DNA of 64,000 bases from Candidatus Cloacimonadota bacterium (GTDB lineage Bacteria > Cloacimonadota > Cloacimonadia > Cloacimonadales > TCS61), in NCBI GenBank assembly GCA_030445745.1, contig JASUTE010000005.1, positions 68,501-132,500 of the forward strand, in the 5' to 3' direction. A program made the position numbers and the translations under genes. Below the pieces are notes generated by a model. That model did not search any database, was not told the DNA's origin, and saw only the letters and a program-made list of their open reading frames with translations. Below, one piece after another: positions 8,766 to 31,989 of this stretch. The number at the start of each line of letters is the position of its first letter. The stretch's first letter is position 1.

Positions 8766-9866
8766 ATGATAATTACGATAGCAAACACTGTTATAATTGT
8801 GAGTGGCATTTCTGGTTTCTTAGCGTTTTTACTGGTGTTAGCCGAAAAATTCTTTGCTAATTATGGCGAATGCAAGATAGATATTAACGGGAAAAAAGAA
8901 CTGGTAATAGAAGGTGGGAGTTCTTTACTAGCTAGTTTGAACGAGAATAAAATATTTTTAGCATCTGCTTGTGGTGGTCGTGGTAGTTGTGGTTTTTGTA
9001 AATGTACTGTAAAAAGCGGTGGAGGCCCGCTGCTACCAACCGAGAAACCATTTTTGAATTCACAGGAAATAAATAAGGGTGTAAGATTAGCCTGCCAGAT
9101 AAAAGTTAAGGAAGATCTTCAGATAGAAATTCCTGAAGAAATTTTTAATATTCGCAAATTTAAAGCTGAGGTTAGCCAAATAAGAAATTTTACCTACGAT
9201 ATCAAAGAATTAACTTTGAAGTTGATAGAGCCAAATGAAATAGATTTTAAAGCTGGGCAGTATGTGCAGTTGGAAGCGCCACCTTATGAAAAAAGCAAGC
9301 ACAGTGTAACTCGGGCTTACTCAATAGCCAGCAGTCCGCTCCACAAAGATTATATTCAGCTCATTATTCGTCGTGTTCCCGATGGTATTTGCACTACATA
9401 TATTTTCGATTATTTGCAGCAGGGCGATAATATCAATTTCACTGGACCTTTCGGCGATTTCATCATTCGGGACACCCAATCTGATATGTTATTCGTGGCT
9501 GGAGGTTCCGGTAAAGCTCCTATAAAATCTATGTTGGAATATTTACAGAACCAGGGCAGTAAGCGCCGAATGATTTATATGTTCGGAGCTCGTACTAAAG
9601 ACGATCTTTACTTAACAGAAGAATTTAGGGAATTGGAAGAAAAATTGGCCGATTTTACTTACGTTCCAGTTCTTTCTAAGCCCAAAGAGGGTACAGACTG
9701 GCAAGGAAAAACTGGTTACATTCCGCCCTATTTTCCTGAGTATATAAAAGATCCCCAAAATACTGAAGCTTATCTATGCGGTAGCCCCGGTATGATTGCC
9801 GCAGTAAAGAAAGGGTTGTTGGAAAATGGTGTTAGCGAAGATAAAATTTATTACGACAGCTTTTAA
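8766..9866 (+). CDS. nqrF: NqrF-type subunit (TM helix + 2Fe-2S ferredoxin + FAD/NADH-binding FNR-like domain)
   Basis: 366 aa. Cluster motif 'CGGRGSCGFCKC...RLACQ', FAD motif 'RAYSIAS', NAD motif 'AGGSGKAP', and C-terminal 'YLCGSPGM'. Confidence 0.92.
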   Translation: MIITIANTVIIVSGISGFLAFLLVLAEKFFANYGECKIDINGKKELVIEGGSSLLASLNENKIFLASACGGRGSCGFCKCTVKSGGGPLLPTEKPFLNSQEINKGVRLACQIKVKEDLQIEIPEEIFNIRKFKAEVSQIRNFTYDIKELTLKLIEPNEIDFKAGQYVQLEAPPYEKSKHSVTRAYSIASSPLHKDYIQLIIRRVPDGICTTYIFDYLQQGDNINFTGPFGDFIIRDTQSDMLFVAGGSGKAPIKSMLEYLQNQGSKRRMIYMFGARTKDDLYLTEEFRELEEKLADFTYVPVLSKPKEGTDWQGKTGYIPPYFPEYIKDPQNTEAYLCGSPGMIAAVKKGLLENGVSEDKIYYDSF

Positions 9867-11489: not shown

Positions 11490-12534
11490 AACTGGCAAAT
11501 TAGAAAATTTCGTAAAAAATCACTGGCAACCCAATATGGTTTTCCTACACGATACCGGTAGTATGTATGGGATAGGTTGCGCTGCCTTCCAAAAAGATGC
11601 AGTTGCTAAAATAGACAGACTGAAACAACGGGGTCAGCGCAAACATTATTTGGTGCTTTTTCCTAAAATAGAGTGGCTGAGTAGATATGGAATAATTTAT
11701 CCAAACATTCTTCAACGCCTTTTCAGGCAGTTTTGGCCTGGTAATCTCACTATCCTATTATCCGATAAGAAAAAATATTTTTCTCACCTTACTTTTAGCA
11801 ATAAAATCGGAATACGTATTCCGGAAAGTAAACTTCTACGCGATTTTATTTCCTACATTGAAGAACCAATTGTAAGTACCAGTATAAACGTAAGTGGCGA
11901 AGCACCACTTAAAGATTTAAAGCAGATAATAAAAGAGAAAGGTAGCTGGTTCGATTTTGGGATCTCAGACAAAAGTAAAGTATTAGCACAACCCTCTACA
12001 ATTATTGATTTTGTAGGTGGAGAACTTAAGCTGATTCGTGCTGGTAGTATCAATTTCGATTTGATAGAACAAAGCCTAAAAAAACCACTTATCTTGTTTG
12101 TATGCACTGGCAACATTTGTCGTAGCCCTATGGCTGAATATTATACGCGCAATCTAATAGAACAAAGGGGACTAAATTATCGAGTAGCTTCAGCTGGATT
12201 TATGGCTTCCGGTTATCCTATTTCCGAATCTGCTTTTAAAGTTTTAAGAGAAAATGGCATAGATGCAGCACACCATGTGTCTTCTGTTCTAAATAGGAAG
12301 CTGGTGGAAGAAAGCAATTTAATTATTACTATGACCTTACGTCAGAAGCGCGATCTTTTAAGTTTGTACCCAAATAGTTATAATAAAACCTTTACATTTT
12401 CGGAATTTTGTGATTTTGCCTCGGATATAGAAGATCCCTATGGTTTGGAAATTGAATATTACCGCGGTGCGTTTGAGATGATAAAAACAAGAGCGCTGGT
12501 ATTATTAGAAAAATTGGAAGCAGAGGTGGAATGA
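11473..12534 (+). CDS. Fusion protein: YrdC/Sua5-family L-threonylcarbamoyladenylate synthase domain + low-molecular-weight protein (Tyr/Arg) phosphatase domain
   Basis: The N-terminal ~200 aa are YrdC-like ('FWPGNLTILL', 'IGIRIPES', 'STSINVSGE', 'STIIDF'). The C-terminal part has the LMW-PTP P-loop 'VCTGNICRSPMAE' and the Asp loop 'DIEDPYG'. Confidence 0.85.
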   Translation: MKIINKTGKLENFVKNHWQPNMVFLHDTGSMYGIGCAAFQKDAVAKIDRLKQRGQRKHYLVLFPKIEWLSRYGIIYPNILQRLFRQFWPGNLTILLSDKKKYFSHLTFSNKIGIRIPESKLLRDFISYIEEPIVSTSINVSGEAPLKDLKQIIKEKGSWFDFGISDKSKVLAQPSTIIDFVGGELKLIRAGSINFDLIEQSLKKPLILFVCTGNICRSPMAEYYTRNLIEQRGLNYRVASAGFMASGYPISESAFKVLRENGIDAAHHVSSVLNRKLVEESNLIITMTLRQKRDLLSLYPNSYNKTFTFSEFCDFASDIEDPYGLEIEYYRGAFEMIKTRALVLLEKLEAEVE

Positions 12535-26949: not shown

Positions 26950-27372
26950 TTAAATTATTTTGAAAGGAGTTAGTTTTAACTTGTCTAACTTTAATAGTTC
27001 CACGTGCTTGCGGATTCTTCCTTGGTGCCAGGCTGCTTGTATCTGGTCAAAGTTTTGCTGGAGTGTAGTAATTTGAGTTGGAATATCTTTACTGCTTGCT
27101 ATTATGCAAGCAAATTTTTTGTTAATTCTTTTAATATTTGGCCCGAAAACTCTGGACACAGCGCAGGTTACATCTTTGCTTTGAAGCAGGTTAACTATGC
27201 CGCCAGCTTTTTTAGGATCAGCATGCTGTTCTTCCTCTTCTGTGGTATTTTCTATACTGGCAATCTGCCGGTAATCGTTTTGGGTGATTTTATAGATCTG
27301 GTAAAACTTGGCATCGCCAAAATGGCGGTTGATAAAATTCTTGTTATCATCGGTTGCAAAAGCGAATATCAA
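26950..27372 (-). CDS. NifX/NifB-like (dinitrogenase FeMo-cofactor-binding fold, PF02579-type) protein
   Basis: 140 aa. 'IFAFATDDNK...INRHFGDAKFYQIY' and 'VTCAVSRVFGPN' match the family pattern HFG-x-A-x-F...G-x-x-A. Confidence 0.65.
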   Translation of the reverse strand: MIFAFATDDNKNFINRHFGDAKFYQIYKITQNDYRQIASIENTTEEEEQHADPKKAGGIVNLLQSKDVTCAVSRVFGPNIKRINKKFACIIASSKDIPTQITTLQQNFDQIQAAWHQGRIRKHVELLKLDKLKLTPFKII

Positions 27373-27758: not shown

Positions 27759-27992
27759 TTATTTTAACATCTCTTCGCGCACCATAAGATTACCGCATTT
27801 GGGGCATTTTATATCAGTACATTTAGTTCCGCGCTGATGGGGAATAGTTGTGCGACATTTGGGGCAAACACAGTTGCCGCCGGGACCATAAGCACCTCCA
27901 TTATTGCGGCCTTGGCCTCCTTGGTTAAAGTTTCTTCCCATTCCTCTGCCTTGTCCACCACCATGTGGACCGGTTCCATCTCTATTTGGCAT
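27759..27992 (-). CDS. DUF5320-like small protein with Gly-rich linker and C-terminal zinc ribbon
   Basis: 77 aa. N-terminal 'MPNRDGTGPHGGGQGRGMGR' is a DUF5320-type start, followed by 'CVCPKCRTT...CPKCGNLM' (CxxC-x17-CxxC). AGGAGGAG SD. Confidence 0.7.
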   Translation of the reverse strand: MPNRDGTGPHGGGQGRGMGRNFNQGGQGRNNGGAYGPGGNCVCPKCRTTIPHQRGTKCTDIKCPKCGNLMVREEMLK

Positions 27993-28263
27993 TTGTCTCC
28001 TCCTTTTTATCTTCCAAAATTTCGTAGTCTTTGCTTTCTATTACGGTGTGCTCTTGCTGCTCGATATTTTTCTTTTTGCTACCCAGTTTACGGAATATCT
28101 TGCGGGAAATGCTATCTGGTTTGCGCAGATCGTTTATGATAGCACCAACTAAGGGTGCTACAACGGTCTTCCAAAAAGAAAAATTTCTCCCGCCGCTATT
28201 TGTTGTATTATTTCTACGACGACGACCATGACCACGCGGGCCAGTTCCATCTCTATTTGGCAT
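27982..28263 (-). CDS. DUF5320-like small protein (paralog, basic N-terminus, acidic tail)
   Basis: 93 aa. It has the same 'MPNRDGTGP' start, and 20 nt are identical between 28244-28263 and 27973-27992. GAGGAGAG SD. It overlaps the next gene by 11 nt. Confidence 0.65.
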   Translation of the reverse strand: MPNRDGTGPRGHGRRRRNNTTNSGGRNFSFWKTVVAPLVGAIINDLRKPDSISRKIFRKLGSKKKNIEQQEHTVIESKDYEILEDKKEETNAK

Positions 28264-28361: not shown

Positions 28362-28390
28362 AAAAAAAACCACTCTGTCTGATAGAGTGG
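28362..28390 (-). terminator. Rho-independent terminator downstream of the sigma-factor pair
   Basis: The minus strand reads CCACTCT-atcagac-AGAGTGG followed by T8 (plus-strand A-run at 28362-28369). The plus-strand side is also followed by T-rich sequence, so it may be bidirectional. Confidence 0.6.
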
Positions 28391-28552
28391 CTTTTGGTGC
28401 TTTTTTTTCTTATTATCATAGTATTCATCCATATCTAAATTAATTTGAGCCATTATTCTCCTCTTTATTTTGATTTTTGCTTAACCCAAGTTAAGAAGAA
28501 TGAATTTTGGCTCAATTATTTTTAACCACTTTTTGGATGTTATCTTTCTGAA

Positions 28553-29527
28553 TTATGCTTCACTTTTATCTCGGCTATATATTACTTTTATTTCCCCTTT
28601 GCCGTTTATGAATTCCATAATTTCTTCTCTTTTCATTTTTAAGGTTCCATCTTTTTTGGTTTGCATTATTATGTCTTTGATTTCTTTATCAACTTGAAAT
28701 TCTAATATCTTTTGAGGTGGTTGAGGAAATTGAATTATCTTAATAGCATTTTCATTATAGATTTCAAATTTTGTGATGAAACAAGAAAAAAAACCATCTA
28801 AATTGTAGTAGTTTACATAAAGTTCATACGTTTTATTATCTATCAATTTTATGCTATAATTTAATATTTTTTTTATATGAATATCTGGTATTTTCGAAGG
28901 TATTTCACATTCCCGGAAATATAGCTTCATCTTTTCTAAAGAATTTGTTTCTAAGGCATTTTTGAATTTTTTAATAAAGTTAATTAAATTTTCATGCAGT
29001 TTAGCACCAACAATAGCCCTAGAAGCTATCATACCATGTTGTTTGTTATACTCAGCTCGTATTTCCCTTTTTAAGCGATAGAGGCGTTTACGTAAAGTGG
29101 AGTAACTAATCCCCTTTTTTATAGCTACTTGGCGAAGTTTTCTACCTTCGGCAATATATTTCTGCAAAAGTTCTTTATCAGATTCTTTTAAATCAATATT
29201 GTTTTCTTCCAAAACCTCCGAGAGTGTTTTAATCTGTTTATCCTCTAAAAAAGTTTCAGTATAGATGTTCTCTATTTTGTTAAAATCTACCGGGTTATTC
29301 AAAACATCTCTTTTCTGTTTCTTAAGCAGGTCAATAGCAGCATTCTTGGTGACTTTCTGGATCCAGCTTCTTAACTTTTCAGAATCTATCTTAGCAGAGT
29401 TTAAATAGTATTTCATATATACTAATACAAGAACATCTTCTTGGTCTTCTTGATTAGTTAGGTATTTTTTTAGTACTGGGATTGAATATCTCTTTATTTT
29501 GGAATATAATGTTTTATCTGCCTGCAT
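28553..29527 (-). CDS. ECF-like sigma-70 family factor with ~150-aa C-terminal extension (paralog 1)
   Basis: 324 aa. Region-2-like 'EDVLVLVYMKYY...LRSWIQKVTKNAAIDLLKK'. Region-4 HTH 'LLQKYIAEGRKLRQVAIKKGISYSTLRKRLYRLKREI'. The C-terminal domain is shared with the neighbouring gene. Confidence 0.7.
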   Translation of the reverse strand: MQADKTLYSKIKRYSIPVLKKYLTNQEDQEDVLVLVYMKYYLNSAKIDSEKLRSWIQKVTKNAAIDLLKKQKRDVLNNPVDFNKIENIYTETFLEDKQIKTLSEVLEENNIDLKESDKELLQKYIAEGRKLRQVAIKKGISYSTLRKRLYRLKREIRAEYNKQHGMIASRAIVGAKLHENLINFIKKFKNALETNSLEKMKLYFRECEIPSKIPDIHIKKILNYSIKLIDNKTYELYVNYYNLDGFFSCFITKFEIYNENAIKIIQFPQPPQKILEFQVDKEIKDIIMQTKKDGTLKMKREEIMEFINGKGEIKVIYSRDKSEA

Positions 29528-29544
29528 AATAATGGATTTTCTGG

Positions 29545-30528
29545 CTATTCTTCACTTTTATCTTGGTTATATATTTCTTTCATTTTACCTTTGCCTTTAA
29601 GGAATTCCATAATTTCTTCTCTTTTCATTTTTAAAGTTCCATCTTTTTGGGTTTGCATTATCGTTTCAATTATTGTCTTATCAAGATTTACTTTTATTAT
29701 TTTTTGTGGTGGTTTGGGAAATTCAACTATTTTTATAGAATTTTCATTATAGATTTCAAAAATCGTGATAAAACTCGAAAAAATTCCTTCTAAATTGAGA
29801 TAATTAACAAATAATTTGTATTTTTTATTATCAAGTAGTTTAATATCATAATCTAAAATTTCTTTTATTTTGATATCTGGAATTTTGTGAGATATTTCAC
29901 ATTCCCGGAAATATAGCTTCATCTTTTCTAAAGAATTTGTTTCTAAAGCATTTTTGAATTTTTTAAGAAAGTTTTGCAGATTTTCATGCAGTTTGGCCCC
30001 AACAATTAGGCGAGAAGCTATAATACCCTGCTGTTTATTGTATTCTGCCCTAATATCTGCTTTTAATCGATATATCCTTTTTTTTATTGCAGCAAAACTG
30101 GTACGGCGCCGATAAGCTAATTTTTTTATTTTAAATCCGGATTTGATATACCTTTCCAATAGCTGGCGCTCTGGTTGCGAAATAATCTTGCTATAATCTT
30201 TCAATATATCATCTAATGACTTAACTTCTTGCTTCTTTTTATCTTTAGTAAGAAAACTTTCGGTGATTATGTTTTCGAGGTCATCAAAATTGAGAGTTTT
30301 TTGGGAAATTTGGTGTTTTTTAGATTTATTATAATCTATACTGGCATTTTTAGCAACTGTGATTATCCAATTATTCAGGTTTTCTTTTTGTAGTTTGTCT
30401 TCATGCAAGTAATATTTAATTAATACTGTTTGAGCCAGGTCTTCTCTATCTTCCTGATTGCTAACATATTTACAAATAGTTCTGTAAGCTAAATTTTTAA
30501 CCTTCTGGTATAATTTTTCTTCCTGCAT
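29545..30528 (-). CDS. ECF-like sigma-70 family factor with ~150-aa C-terminal extension (paralog 2)
   Basis: 327 aa. Region-2-like 'EDLAQTVLIKYY...LNNWIITVAKNASIDYNK'. Region-4 HTH 'LLERYIKSGFKIKKLAYRRRTSFAAIKKRIYRLKADI'. A 17-nt gap separates it from paralog 1. Confidence 0.7.
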   Translation of the reverse strand: MQEEKLYQKVKNLAYRTICKYVSNQEDREDLAQTVLIKYYLHEDKLQKENLNNWIITVAKNASIDYNKSKKHQISQKTLNFDDLENIITESFLTKDKKKQEVKSLDDILKDYSKIISQPERQLLERYIKSGFKIKKLAYRRRTSFAAIKKRIYRLKADIRAEYNKQQGIIASRLIVGAKLHENLQNFLKKFKNALETNSLEKMKLYFRECEISHKIPDIKIKEILDYDIKLLDNKKYKLFVNYLNLEGIFSSFITIFEIYNENSIKIVEFPKPPQKIIKVNLDKTIIETIMQTQKDGTLKMKREEIMEFLKGKGKMKEIYNQDKSEE

Positions 30529-30588
30529 AAAAATATTCCTATATTAAACATTGGCTAATCATTTTAAAAGCAATCACTTAGTCCACTT

Positions 30589-30620
30589 TTCGTCCCCTTT
30601 CTACAAAAATATCGTATATA
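30589..30620 (+). promoter_or_regulatory. Bipartite promoter-like motif, copy 1 (TTCGTCCCCTTT-N12-CGTATATA)
   Basis: An exact 12-nt left box sits at 30589-30600 and an 8-nt right box at 30613-30620, with the same 12-nt spacing as copy 2. Read as TCGTCC-N17-CGTATA it has the geometry of an ECF-type promoter. Confidence 0.45.
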
Positions 30621-30762
30621 ACAGTAGAAGGAGGAACTAAAGATAAAAAATAGATTGAATTATTATCGTCAATAAATATATCGTGGCTTGGTGATAGAAA
30701 GAGGGAAATTGTGCATTTTAAGGATGCTGTAATTGTAATTATTGTAAGCAGTTAACTTAGAA

Positions 30763-30794
30763 TTCGTCCCCTTTTTCAGTTTTGTTCGTATATA
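30763..30794 (+). promoter_or_regulatory. Bipartite promoter-like motif, copy 2 (TTCGTCCCCTTT-N12-CGTATATA)
   Basis: Identical boxes at 30763-30774 and 30787-30794. It ends 20 nt before the AGGAGG (30815-30820) of the 65-aa ORF. Confidence 0.5.
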
Positions 30795-30825
30795 TAAGTG
30801 AAAGCAAAAATATTAGGAGGCTACG

Positions 30826-31023
30826 ATGAAAAAGTTTTTATTAGTTATTTTTTTAATCAGTGTATTGACCAGTGGATTATTTGCAGTTGAATCGAATATA
30901 GATACAAGTAAATTGGAAGAGATTAGCTGGGAAGAAGTAGGAGATAATGCTGTTATATATGAAGTTGGTGATGGTTATTGTATCGTTGTAATAGGTGATG
31001 ATGTTTACATTGTTTTCGAATAG
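30826..31023 (+). CDS. Small exported protein (65 aa, signal peptide + acidic ~45-aa mature part)
   Basis: AGGAGG lies 5 nt upstream. 'MKKFLLVIFLISVLTSGLFA/VES' looks like a Sec signal. The mature part is rich in E, D, V and I. I recognise no family. Confidence 0.6.
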   Translation: MKKFLLVIFLISVLTSGLFAVESNIDTSKLEEISWEEVGDNAVIYEVGDGYCIVVIGDDVYIVFE

Positions 31024-31033
31024 AGGATAAATC

Positions 31034-31258
31034 ATGAAAGTTCGCGATGAGATCCGGAAAATGCTCTACGAAATGGAATTGGAGAATCCTGGAATATTGG
31101 ATAGATATTCGGAAAAGGATATAAACAGGATACCGGAGATAAAAGCGATACTTGAACAGAAAAAATTCAAAAAAATAATAAATTTCAAAGTAGTTAGAAA
31201 AAATAAAAATGAACAATTGGAGTCTCTTAAGTCAATAAAGTTTAATTTTTTAATATAA
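31034..31258 (+). CDS. Small hypothetical protein (74 aa, charged, no signal peptide)
   Basis: GAGGA lies 6 nt upstream, 10 nt after the preceding stop. A strong terminator follows. I recognise no family. Confidence 0.5.
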   Translation: MKVRDEIRKMLYEMELENPGILDRYSEKDINRIPEIKAILEQKKFKKIINFKVVRKNKNEQLESLKSIKFNFLI

Positions 31259-31294
31259 TTTCTCTCTAAATTCCTCTCTAAAACTAATAAAGTG

Positions 31295-31328
31295 GCCACT
31301 CTTGCCCGCAGAGTGGCTCTTTTTTTTT
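31295..31328 (+). terminator. Rho-independent terminator after the small-gene pair
   Basis: An 8-bp stem, GCCACTCT (31295-31302) with AGAGTGGC (31310-31317), has a 7-nt loop and is followed by TCTTTTTTTTT. Confidence 0.7.
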
Positions 31329-31792: not shown

Positions 31793-31869
31793 TGGTGTGC
31801 CCGAGAGGATTCGAACCCCCGACACCCAGAACCGGAATCTGGTGCTCTATCCAGCTGAGCTACGGGCAC
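31793..31869 (-). tRNA. tRNA-Arg (anticodon CCG), CCA encoded
   Basis: The reverse complement folds by hand. Acceptor GTGCCCG/CGGGCAC, D-arm GCTC-AGCTGGATA-GAGC, anticodon arm CCAGA-TTCCGGT-TCTGG, T-arm GGGGG-TTCGAAT-CCTCT, discriminator A, then CCA. Confidence 0.9.
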
Positions 31870-31989
31870 ACATAATGCCAAACTTATAACCTCCATTTTT
31901 TATGCAACTATTTTTTAATAACTTCTCAACTTGTTAATCTGATATTGACATATAAATTAGAGTTCCTTTTTTTGTTTAAAAGGTGGAAA

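Follow-up and report, generated by a model that had tools for sequence, protein, structure and literature searches.

Organization of the locus and a repeated bipartite motif

The sequence analyzed here is a 64-kilobase (kb) stretch of DNA from a Cloacimonadota bacterium, referred to as the window, in which a bipartite motif occurs twice between a pair of sigma factor genes and an operon for small proteins. The Cloacimonadota, fermenters that abound in anaerobic digesters, have not been cultured, and to our knowledge nothing is known about their transcriptional regulation. The comparison also took in approximately 50 kb of related loci, bringing the total to about 115 kb of Cloacimonadota DNA. 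Contigs nearly identical to the window are found in many digester-type metagenomes, and a sigma protein with 75% identity is annotated in a Cloacimonadota metagenome-assembled genome.

A 297-nucleotide (nt) intergenic region divides two divergent transcription units, the sigma pair on the minus strand and the small-protein genes on the plus strand (Table 1). Given the gap of only 17 nt between them, the two sigma paralogs are probably co-transcribed. Both copies of the motif lie on the plus strand, 174 nt apart from start to start, and take the form TTCGTCCCCTTT-N12-CGTATATA; their boxes are identical, while the 12-nt spacers are unrelated (CTACAAAAATAT in copy 1 and TTCAGTTTTGTT in copy 2). 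The initial annotation, which was made from this sequence alone, had described two copies with identical boxes and unlike spacers of equal length, and this description was confirmed at exact coordinates, with no chance match in shuffled sequences. It was equally right in placing AGGAGG 20 nt past copy 2, ahead of the small-gene ATG at 30826, and in noting that copy 1 is followed by GAAGGAGGA (30627-30635) without a usable start codon: no ATG or GTG lies in range, and the first TTG (30656) opens a frame of six codons.

The motif is rare as well as exact. Allowing as many as three mismatches to the full pattern, a search of both strands of the window returned copies 1 and 2 only, and none of 100 dinucleotide-preserving shuffles contained a match. 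The reduced pattern TCGTCC-N15-19-CGTAT occurs in the 64 kb only at the two copies, against 0.01 occurrences expected, and the looser patterns CGTCC-N16-19-CGTNNA and CGT[CT][CT]C-N15-18-CGTNNA found the same two sites. With a position weight matrix built from the 12 instances described below, the window copies scored 34.0 and 30.3 bits and the next best window site 17.6 bits. This third site, at 12177 on the minus strand, was dismissed as a chance match; it lies antisense inside a gene for a protein of 353 amino acids (aa), and shuffled sequences reach scores of at least 14 about 0.35 times per window. No motif sites besides the known copies were found in the approximately 50 kb of related loci. 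A scan of a genome collection with TTCGTCCCC-N15/16-CGTMTAT produced at least 119 matches in unrelated phyla, which were attributed to chance and, among those listed, were all single, and was uninformative in this respect; the sole Cloacimonadota match among those listed was the known locus.

Table 1. Features of the sigma/small-protein locus (window coordinates)
Feature	Coordinates	Strand	Description
Sigma paralog 2	28553-29527	-	324 aa; 57% identical to paralog 1, downstream of it
Sigma paralog 1	29545-30528	-	327 aa; ECF-type sigma2 and sigma4 regions (residues ~1-165), C-terminal alpha+beta domain (~168-327)
Partial left-box copy TTAGTCCACTTT	30578-30589	+	83% match to left box; abuts copy 1
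Copy 1 (P1)	30589-30620	+	Left box TTCGTCCCCTTT 30589-30600, 12-nt spacer, right box CGTATATA 30613-30620
Invariant 8-mer GTCAATAA	30668-30675	+	From five-lineage alignment
Purine-rich segment TAGAAAGAGGGA	30695-30706	+	Complementary to CCCCTTTTT of copy 2
Copy 2 (P2)	30763-30794	+	Left box TTCGTCCCCTTT 30763-30774, 12-nt spacer, right box CGTATATA 30787-30794
65-aa protein gene	30826-31023	+	Shine-Dalgarno AGGAGG 30815-30820; presumed P2 target
74-aa protein gene	31034-31258	+	Second operon gene; no family match
Intrinsic terminator	31294-31318	+	9-bp stem then T-run; closes small-protein operon ahead of queF

The adjacent sigma factors form a small, phylum-restricted family

That the divergent genes encode a pair of sigma factors, as originally read, was borne out by profile searches: both proteins match Pfam Sigma70_r2 and also TIGR02937, the NCBIfam superfamily model for sigma70 factors of the extracytoplasmic function (ECF) type, which is covered over its entire length. 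Paralog 1 scores 42.9 bits, which equals the cutoff, paralog 2 scores 47.4 bits and protein P0011 scores 54.4 bits. When a profile of the sigma family was compared with PDB, almost all matches were ECF sigmas, the best being Bacillus subtilis SigW (5wuq, E = 1e-5). The AlphaFold2 model shows two helical bundles.

Past sigma4, at about residue 165, begins a C-terminal domain of approximately 160 aa that is more conserved than the sigma core. It was modeled by AlphaFold as a long helix packed on a curved six-stranded sheet, with a predicted local distance difference test (pLDDT) score of 74. Foldseek matches for this domain were NTF2-like proteins (VirB8-like, AtzH, 3ecf and the CaMKII hub), all weak at E >= 0.03, and the modeled fold thus weakly suggests an NTF2-like domain. 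The groups ECF41, ECF56, ECF205, ECF294 and ECF295 carry a SnoaL-like C-terminal extension; no Pfam SnoaL match was found in the sigma proteins at E <= 0.1. An exhaustive HMMER search recovered the C-terminal domain in approximately 90 clusters (50% identity) among 1.84 billion representatives, and nearly all full-length members measure 305-345 aa and carry the domain at about residues 160-320, behind an N-terminal region of sigma size. The family is small, restricted to the phylum and ECF-like. No anti-sigma-like gene was recognized in the operon or its neighborhood.

The motif is conserved in position and form among relatives

Orthologous loci were retrieved through both the sigma protein and the small protein. 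Those of the window clade are designated L001-L010, L014, L146 and L148, and the more distant ones L011, L016, L017, L018, L143 and L150. Sigma identity to the window is 75% for L011, 46% for L016, 45% for L017 and L018, and 44% for L143, and the C-terminal domain of L150 is 41% identical. A metagenome scan with the sigma alignment gave four loci, one of which duplicated the L016 species while the others were too short, and hardly anything new came from a third protein search, which used a broad family alignment.

Seven lineages, with sigma identities of approximately 41-81%, retain the boxes as well as the way in which they are oriented and spaced, and differ in spacers and flanks. This comparison supports the initial view of a bipartite site recognized by a protein. 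Twelve independent instances yield the consensus TTyCGTCyCC-N15/16-CGT(A/C)nAT, with an invariant core of CGTC.C ... CGT..AT and a CGT-to-CGT distance of 22 or 23 nt. Both copies are present in L011, L016, L017 and L018, in the same order and orientation and 172-205 nt apart, and copy 1 is conserved in these four loci as well as in L146 and L148. A MAFFT alignment of the five two-copy lineages contains three invariant blocks, namely copy 1, the 8-mer GTCAATAA and copy 2, and the remainder is divergent. L143 and L150 have an intergenic region of only about 112 nt and a single copy, TTCCGTCCCA-N15-CGTAAAT in the former and TTCCGTCTCC-N15-CGTATAT in the latter.

Where lineages differ, both copies differ together. 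The CGT-to-CGT distance in both copies is 22 nt in the window clade and L011 and 23 nt in L016, L017 and L018, and the right box, read below as a -10 element, has CGTA in both copies of the AT-rich clades and L016 and CGTC in both copies of the GC-richer relatives L017 and L018. Because the spacers within one genome stay unlike each other, gene conversion does not account for this concerted change; lineage-specific changes in both copies at once argue for one co-evolving factor acting in trans.

The placement of the motif is also constrained. In every lineage, one copy lies 26-39 nt (CGT to ATG) before the gene for a conserved protein of 64-76 aa, so that the motif was found upstream of the orthologous small genes, as the initial annotation had proposed to check, in every lineage that carries it. 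In the window this distance is 39 nt for copy 2, and the left box of copy 1 is 60 nt from the sigma ATG (59 nt in L011). The single-copy lineages combine the two positions: 59 nt separate the sigma ATG from the start of the left box, and 29-30 nt separate the right box from the ATG of the small gene. The sigma start codon of L017 was reassigned from the protein alignment, and its 27-nt distance is therefore uncertain; the gene call there (P0013, 353 aa, L017 608-1669) begins about 30 codons too early and crosses copy 1, the true start being near 697-699.

Short similarities in the flanks of the copies (ACTTAG upstream in the window; TATAAGTGA(A/G)AG downstream in L011) indicate that they arose by duplication. 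The duplication thus split, over 170-205 nt, two positional roles that are held elsewhere by one site, with both copies maintained since. It is most improbable that the second copy is a functionless, neutral remnant of this event; although the flanks do record a local duplication, the boxes are intact in both copies of five lineages whose sigmas are 45-75% identical, whereas divergence has affected the spacers and most of the 170-205 nt between the copies. Likewise, copy 1, which had been thought perhaps a decayed duplicate, proved to be as conserved as copy 2 and to stand at a fixed distance from the sigma start codon.

An assignment of one motif copy to each sigma paralog was considered and rejected, as L016, L017 and L018, which have a single sigma gene, also have two copies. 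L143 and L150 have one sigma gene beside their single copy, and L143 has a second, distant sigma-like gene elsewhere. No motif was found in L151-L154, which contain more distant members of the sigma family and no small gene, and the family therefore probably holds several specificity groups. Sigma genes of L151-L154 stand downstream of a 1338-aa fusion of a Ser/Thr kinase and a sigma-54 activator, or divergent from genes for proteins of 169 aa and 431 aa.

Promoter-like architecture and the proposed role of the adjacent sigma

ECF promoters are characterized by a -10 element that contains CGT, often as CGTC, and by a -35 element that is specific to the group and lies approximately 16 nt upstream (PMC3426412). 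The boxes of the motif follow this geometry: CGTCCCC-N15-CGT is found in the window clade and L011, N16 replaces N15 in L016, L017 and L018, and the left-box variants CGTCCCA (L143) and CGTCTCC (L150) both come with N15. All 12 instances fit a spacing of 16 +/- 1, and CGT is present in the -10 box of every one (12/12). These observations support the promoter geometry with an ECF-type -10 element that was initially proposed, and the relatives add the canonical CGTC. Moreover, the boxes are unlike each other, keep one orientation relative to the downstream gene, and enclose a spacer that is constrained in length and free in sequence. The variable motif-to-ATG distance of 26-39 nt fits a promoter with a short leader rather than a translational element. 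On the protein side, the sigma4 recognition helix (S-F/Y-x-x-I/L-K/R-K-R/K-x-YRLK) is shared by the two paralogs of the window and every relative that bears the motif, which is consistent with the invariant -35 box; with sigma4 helices that are nearly identical, either paralog could read both copies.

From these comparisons we infer, with a probability of about 0.62, that the two copies are tandem ECF-type promoters, P1 and P2, read by RNA polymerase with the adjacent sigma factor and driving the small-protein operon. Within the sigma, region 4 would recognize the -35 box (T)TCGTCCCC and region 2 the -10 box CGT(A/C)TAT, 15-16 nt downstream of the former. Transcription from P2 is predicted to start at about 30798-30801, approximately 25-28 nt before the ATG of the 65-aa gene, and would drive the 65-aa and 74-aa genes as far as the terminator at 31294-31318. 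P1 is predicted to start at about 30624-30627, producing a non-coding transcript that points away from the sigma genes, and would be the positional counterpart of the single, ancestral-type promoter, approximately 60 nt from the sigma ATG. Control of the sigma factor itself would probably come from the C-terminal domain fused to it, not from an anti-sigma factor, and direct auto-activation would be lacking.

Several observations weigh against this interpretation. The -35 box TTCGTCCCC does not contain the AAC signature typical of ECF promoters. No motif is found on the sigma strand, even with three mismatches, so the usual auto-regulatory arrangement is missing. No product of P1 could be identified in open reading frame (ORF) and Rfam searches. 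Finally, the pairing in the window and L146 that is equivalent to a stem seen in other lineages (AGAAAGAGGGA with CCCCTTTTTCA) is no better than chance. The initial proposal that the copies are cognate promoters of one or both adjacent sigmas is supported by the comparison and needs correction in some points. The motif occurs only beside the present sigma subfamily and changes in concert. The copies are, however, not matched to the paralogs, and as no copy stands ahead of the sigma genes in the direction of their transcription, the locus does not have the classical arrangement of an auto-regulated ECF sigma.

The same lack of a motif ahead of the sigma genes would suit a genuine alternative-sigma promoter read by a different sigma encoded elsewhere, with the adjacent sigma genes as mere neighbors or targets. 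We regard this as unlikely, since the motif accompanies the adjacent sigma subfamily in seven lineages despite differing neighborhoods and its details shift as the sigmas diverge. About as improbable is that the motif serves a conventional DNA-binding regulator as an operator controlling the sigma operon, the small-protein operon or both. Such an operator would agree with the fixed distance of 59-60 nt that in four lineages separates copy 1, or the single copy, from the sigma start codon, and with the CGT that both boxes contain approximately two helical turns apart. However, the boxes are dissimilar and make up no dyad or direct repeat, the orientation relative to the small gene is the same in all 12 instances, and the geometry and CGT(C/A) box fit ECF promoters. 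Nor is any gene for a DNA-binding regulator conserved nearby; the conserved partner is a receiver-only protein.

The region between the copies: putative P1 transcript, RNA stem and sigma operon promoter

Six-frame translations of five lineages contain no conserved ORF behind copy 1. A small ORF at this place was rejected as a candidate, as the lineages share no peptide and read GTCAATAA in different frames. Rfam gave no match other than tRNA in the window, L011, L017 and L018, and no target complementarity was found for a putative P1 RNA. The block GTCAATAA, the only invariant one outside the motif copies, occurs again at 31231-31238 on the plus strand, near the end of the 74-aa gene; it is found three times in the window, against 3.3 expected.

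RNA folding differs among lineages. In L011, L016, L017 and L018, the left box or the spacer of copy 2 has a strong complement 35-60 nt upstream of this copy; 0-4 of 300 shuffles equal this complementarity, which is significant in four of six lineages. The window counterpart of this long-range stem is the pairing of the purine-rich segment TAGAAAGAGGGA, and it is not significant. The 13-base pair (bp) stem of L016, L017 and L018 is 97% paired and shows four compensatory pairs, against none in slid controls. These three loci contain a 12-14-bp inverted repeat, for example AACAGGCGCAG ... CTGCGCCTGTT (L016 ~9760-9845, L017 ~440-530 and L018 ~880-970, minus orientation), which encloses the -35 box of copy 2 and whose 3' arm is the promoter spacer. 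It could serve as a terminator or attenuator for P1 transcripts, overlapping P2. Over five sequences, RNAalifold found only a weak common structure (-3.4 kcal/mol), and the P1 region of the window folds no better than shuffled sequences (z = 0.23). As the window stem is at chance level and this region folds like shuffles, P1 is taken here as an upstream tandem promoter reading into the operon: its transcript would probably continue through P2 as a long leader in the window, and would probably end at the hairpin overlapping P2 in the GC-richer relatives.

The significant stem in four lineages, with its four compensatory pairs, also bears on the idea that the motif acts at the RNA level, whether its reverse complement belongs to the 5' leader of the sigma mRNA, within or beside which copy 1 probably lies, or the motif itself belongs to a structured leader of the small gene. 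We consider this very unlikely. In the GC-richer clade the stem pairs the variable spacer rather than the invariant boxes, a bipartite element with a free spacer is not a signature of RNA structure, the window fold does not exceed that of shuffles, and such a leader would not fit into the single-copy lineages.

The promoter of the sigma operon must fall within the same 297 nt and thus overlaps or faces P1. The reverse complement of GTCAATAA, TTATTGAC, looks on the minus strand like a -35 element of the sigma operon, or GTCAATAA may instead be a functional part of the putative P1 RNA. On the minus strand, 30672-30646 reads TTGACG-N14-TATTTTT, like the upstream region of one other window gene, a pattern that is not enriched over chance and whose spacing is not conserved in the GC-richer clade. 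A sigma-70 consensus scan of the intergenic region found nothing, and a perfect match to TAnnTTTG in the spacer of copy 1 is not conserved in relatives. Another perfect match to this Bacteroidetes-type -7 element, TAAGTTTG, stands at 31879-31886 on the minus strand, 9 nt before the 5' end of a tRNA (31796-31869), and hints that housekeeping promoters of Cloacimonadota may be of the Bacteroidetes kind. In contrast, TTGACA boxes resembling -35 elements precede queF (31327) and trmB (~31946).

This arrangement invites a more tentative proposal, which we hold to be considerably less probable than the tandem-promoter interpretation: P1 would be a sigma-dependent promoter held at a fixed position where it faces or overlaps the sigma promoter, so that active sigma would throttle its own synthesis by occlusion or collision, and P1 would release an RNA of approximately 160-200 nt containing GUCAAUAA. 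If this were true, interference by P1 would constitute a negative feedback standing in for the missing anti-sigma factor, and in some lineages the P1 RNA would end in a hairpin overlapping P2.

The partial left-box copy TTAGTCCACTTT beside copy 1 (TTAGTCCCCTTT in L146) has the appearance of 11 nt of the -35 box that were duplicated locally in tandem, and neither L011 nor the GC-richer clade has it.

The small-protein operon and its neighborhood

The 65-aa protein was modeled by AlphaFold2 as a signal helix followed by a three-stranded beta unit. It belongs to no Pfam or NCBIfam family, and its best Foldseek match reached only E = 0.38. In other lineages, a receiver-only response regulator takes the place of the 74-aa gene of the window. 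The small proteins of L143 and L150 have no signal peptide. L150 carries three tandem small-protein genes at 520-1126 (76, 45 and 45 aa). In L143 (17450-20014), the second sigma-like gene (324 aa, 29% identical) is followed by proteins of 25, 90 and 27 aa and a receiver protein; the three small proteins share a C-terminal Y-x-I-x4-G-x-x-Y-V-V hairpin.

Neighboring genes differ among lineages. The window has queF and trmB, L016, L017 and L018 have radical SAM and cold-shock genes, with a C25 peptidase additionally in L016 and L017, and L143 and L150 have a histidine kinase gene. Beyond the sigma operon of the window, two adjacent paralogous small genes on the minus strand (27759-27992 and 27982-28263) both start with MPNRDGTGP and continue into Gly/Arg-rich tracts, the first also having a zinc-ribbon-like CxxC...CxxC tail. 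This pair adjoins a Nitro_FeMo-Co family gene (26950-27372), and a terminator-like hairpin at approximately 28368-28400 stands between it and the sigma operon.

Significance and comparison with known systems

The 2021 ECF reclassification contains approximately 19 known ECF groups with a fused C-terminal domain, and its text does not mention Cloacimonadota; in a literature search, the top-ranked papers made no link between Cloacimonadota and sigma factors. On this basis, the family is rated as an undescribed ECF-like group with a deduced promoter. The analysis defines a phylum-restricted sigma family, the sequence that it probably recognizes and what is probably its only local target, a small protein that is secreted or cytoplasmic and often has a receiver domain as its partner. 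The sigma and its motif offer a ready-made orthogonal sigma/promoter pair for testing in heterologous hosts. Additionally, the locus provides a concrete case in which to ask what restrains an ECF sigma that has neither an anti-sigma factor nor auto-activation.

In B. subtilis, sigma-W promoters read TGAAAC-N16-CGTATA, and SigW is held by the membrane anti-sigma factor RsiW, is auto-regulated and has dozens of genes in its regulon. The locus described here shares the identical -10 box CGTATA and has an unrelated -35 element; by sequence, SigW is the closest solved structure.

The sigma-E-dependent small RNAs of enterobacteria, MicA, RybB and MicL, offer a parallel for P1, a proposed ECF-type promoter with no ORF behind it that could drive a non-coding RNA. 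P1 is likewise followed by a short invariant block, GUCAAUAA, and in several lineages by a strong stem approximately 160-200 nt downstream. However, this stem has an interior of 35-60 nt, unlike a compact terminator, and is not significant in the window. Overlapping promoters arranged face-to-face or back-to-back, such as pR and pL of coliphage 186, give rise to transcriptional interference. P1 would similarly fire away from the sigma gene, from a fixed position approximately 60 nt upstream of its ATG; unlike the phage case, the sigma operon promoter was not located with confidence here, and interference would be a hypothesis.

ECF41 sigmas are the closest analogue. Those of Bacillus licheniformis (Ecf41Bli) and Rhodobacter sphaeroides (the RSP_0606-linked sigma) use the promoter TGTCACA-n16-CGTC, whose -35 element likewise has no AAC, and such group-specific exceptions are known (PMC3426412). 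The present family differs in its -35 box (TCGTCCCC rather than TGTCACA), in a C-terminal domain with weak NTF2-like fold matches and no Pfam SnoaL match, in a target that is a 64-76-aa protein of no recognized family rather than a COE enzyme, and in a promoter that is tandem-duplicated in most lineages. Membership in ECF41 therefore fails on defining details, namely SnoaL, the -35 element and a COE-type neighbor. Nevertheless, both combine an ECF core with a fused C-terminal regulatory extension, no anti-sigma factor and essentially one neighboring target, and both pair a group-specific -35 element without AAC with a CGTC-type -10 element at a spacer of 16 +/- 1. The kind of switch is thus already familiar, and to a specialist such a system would be unsurprising.

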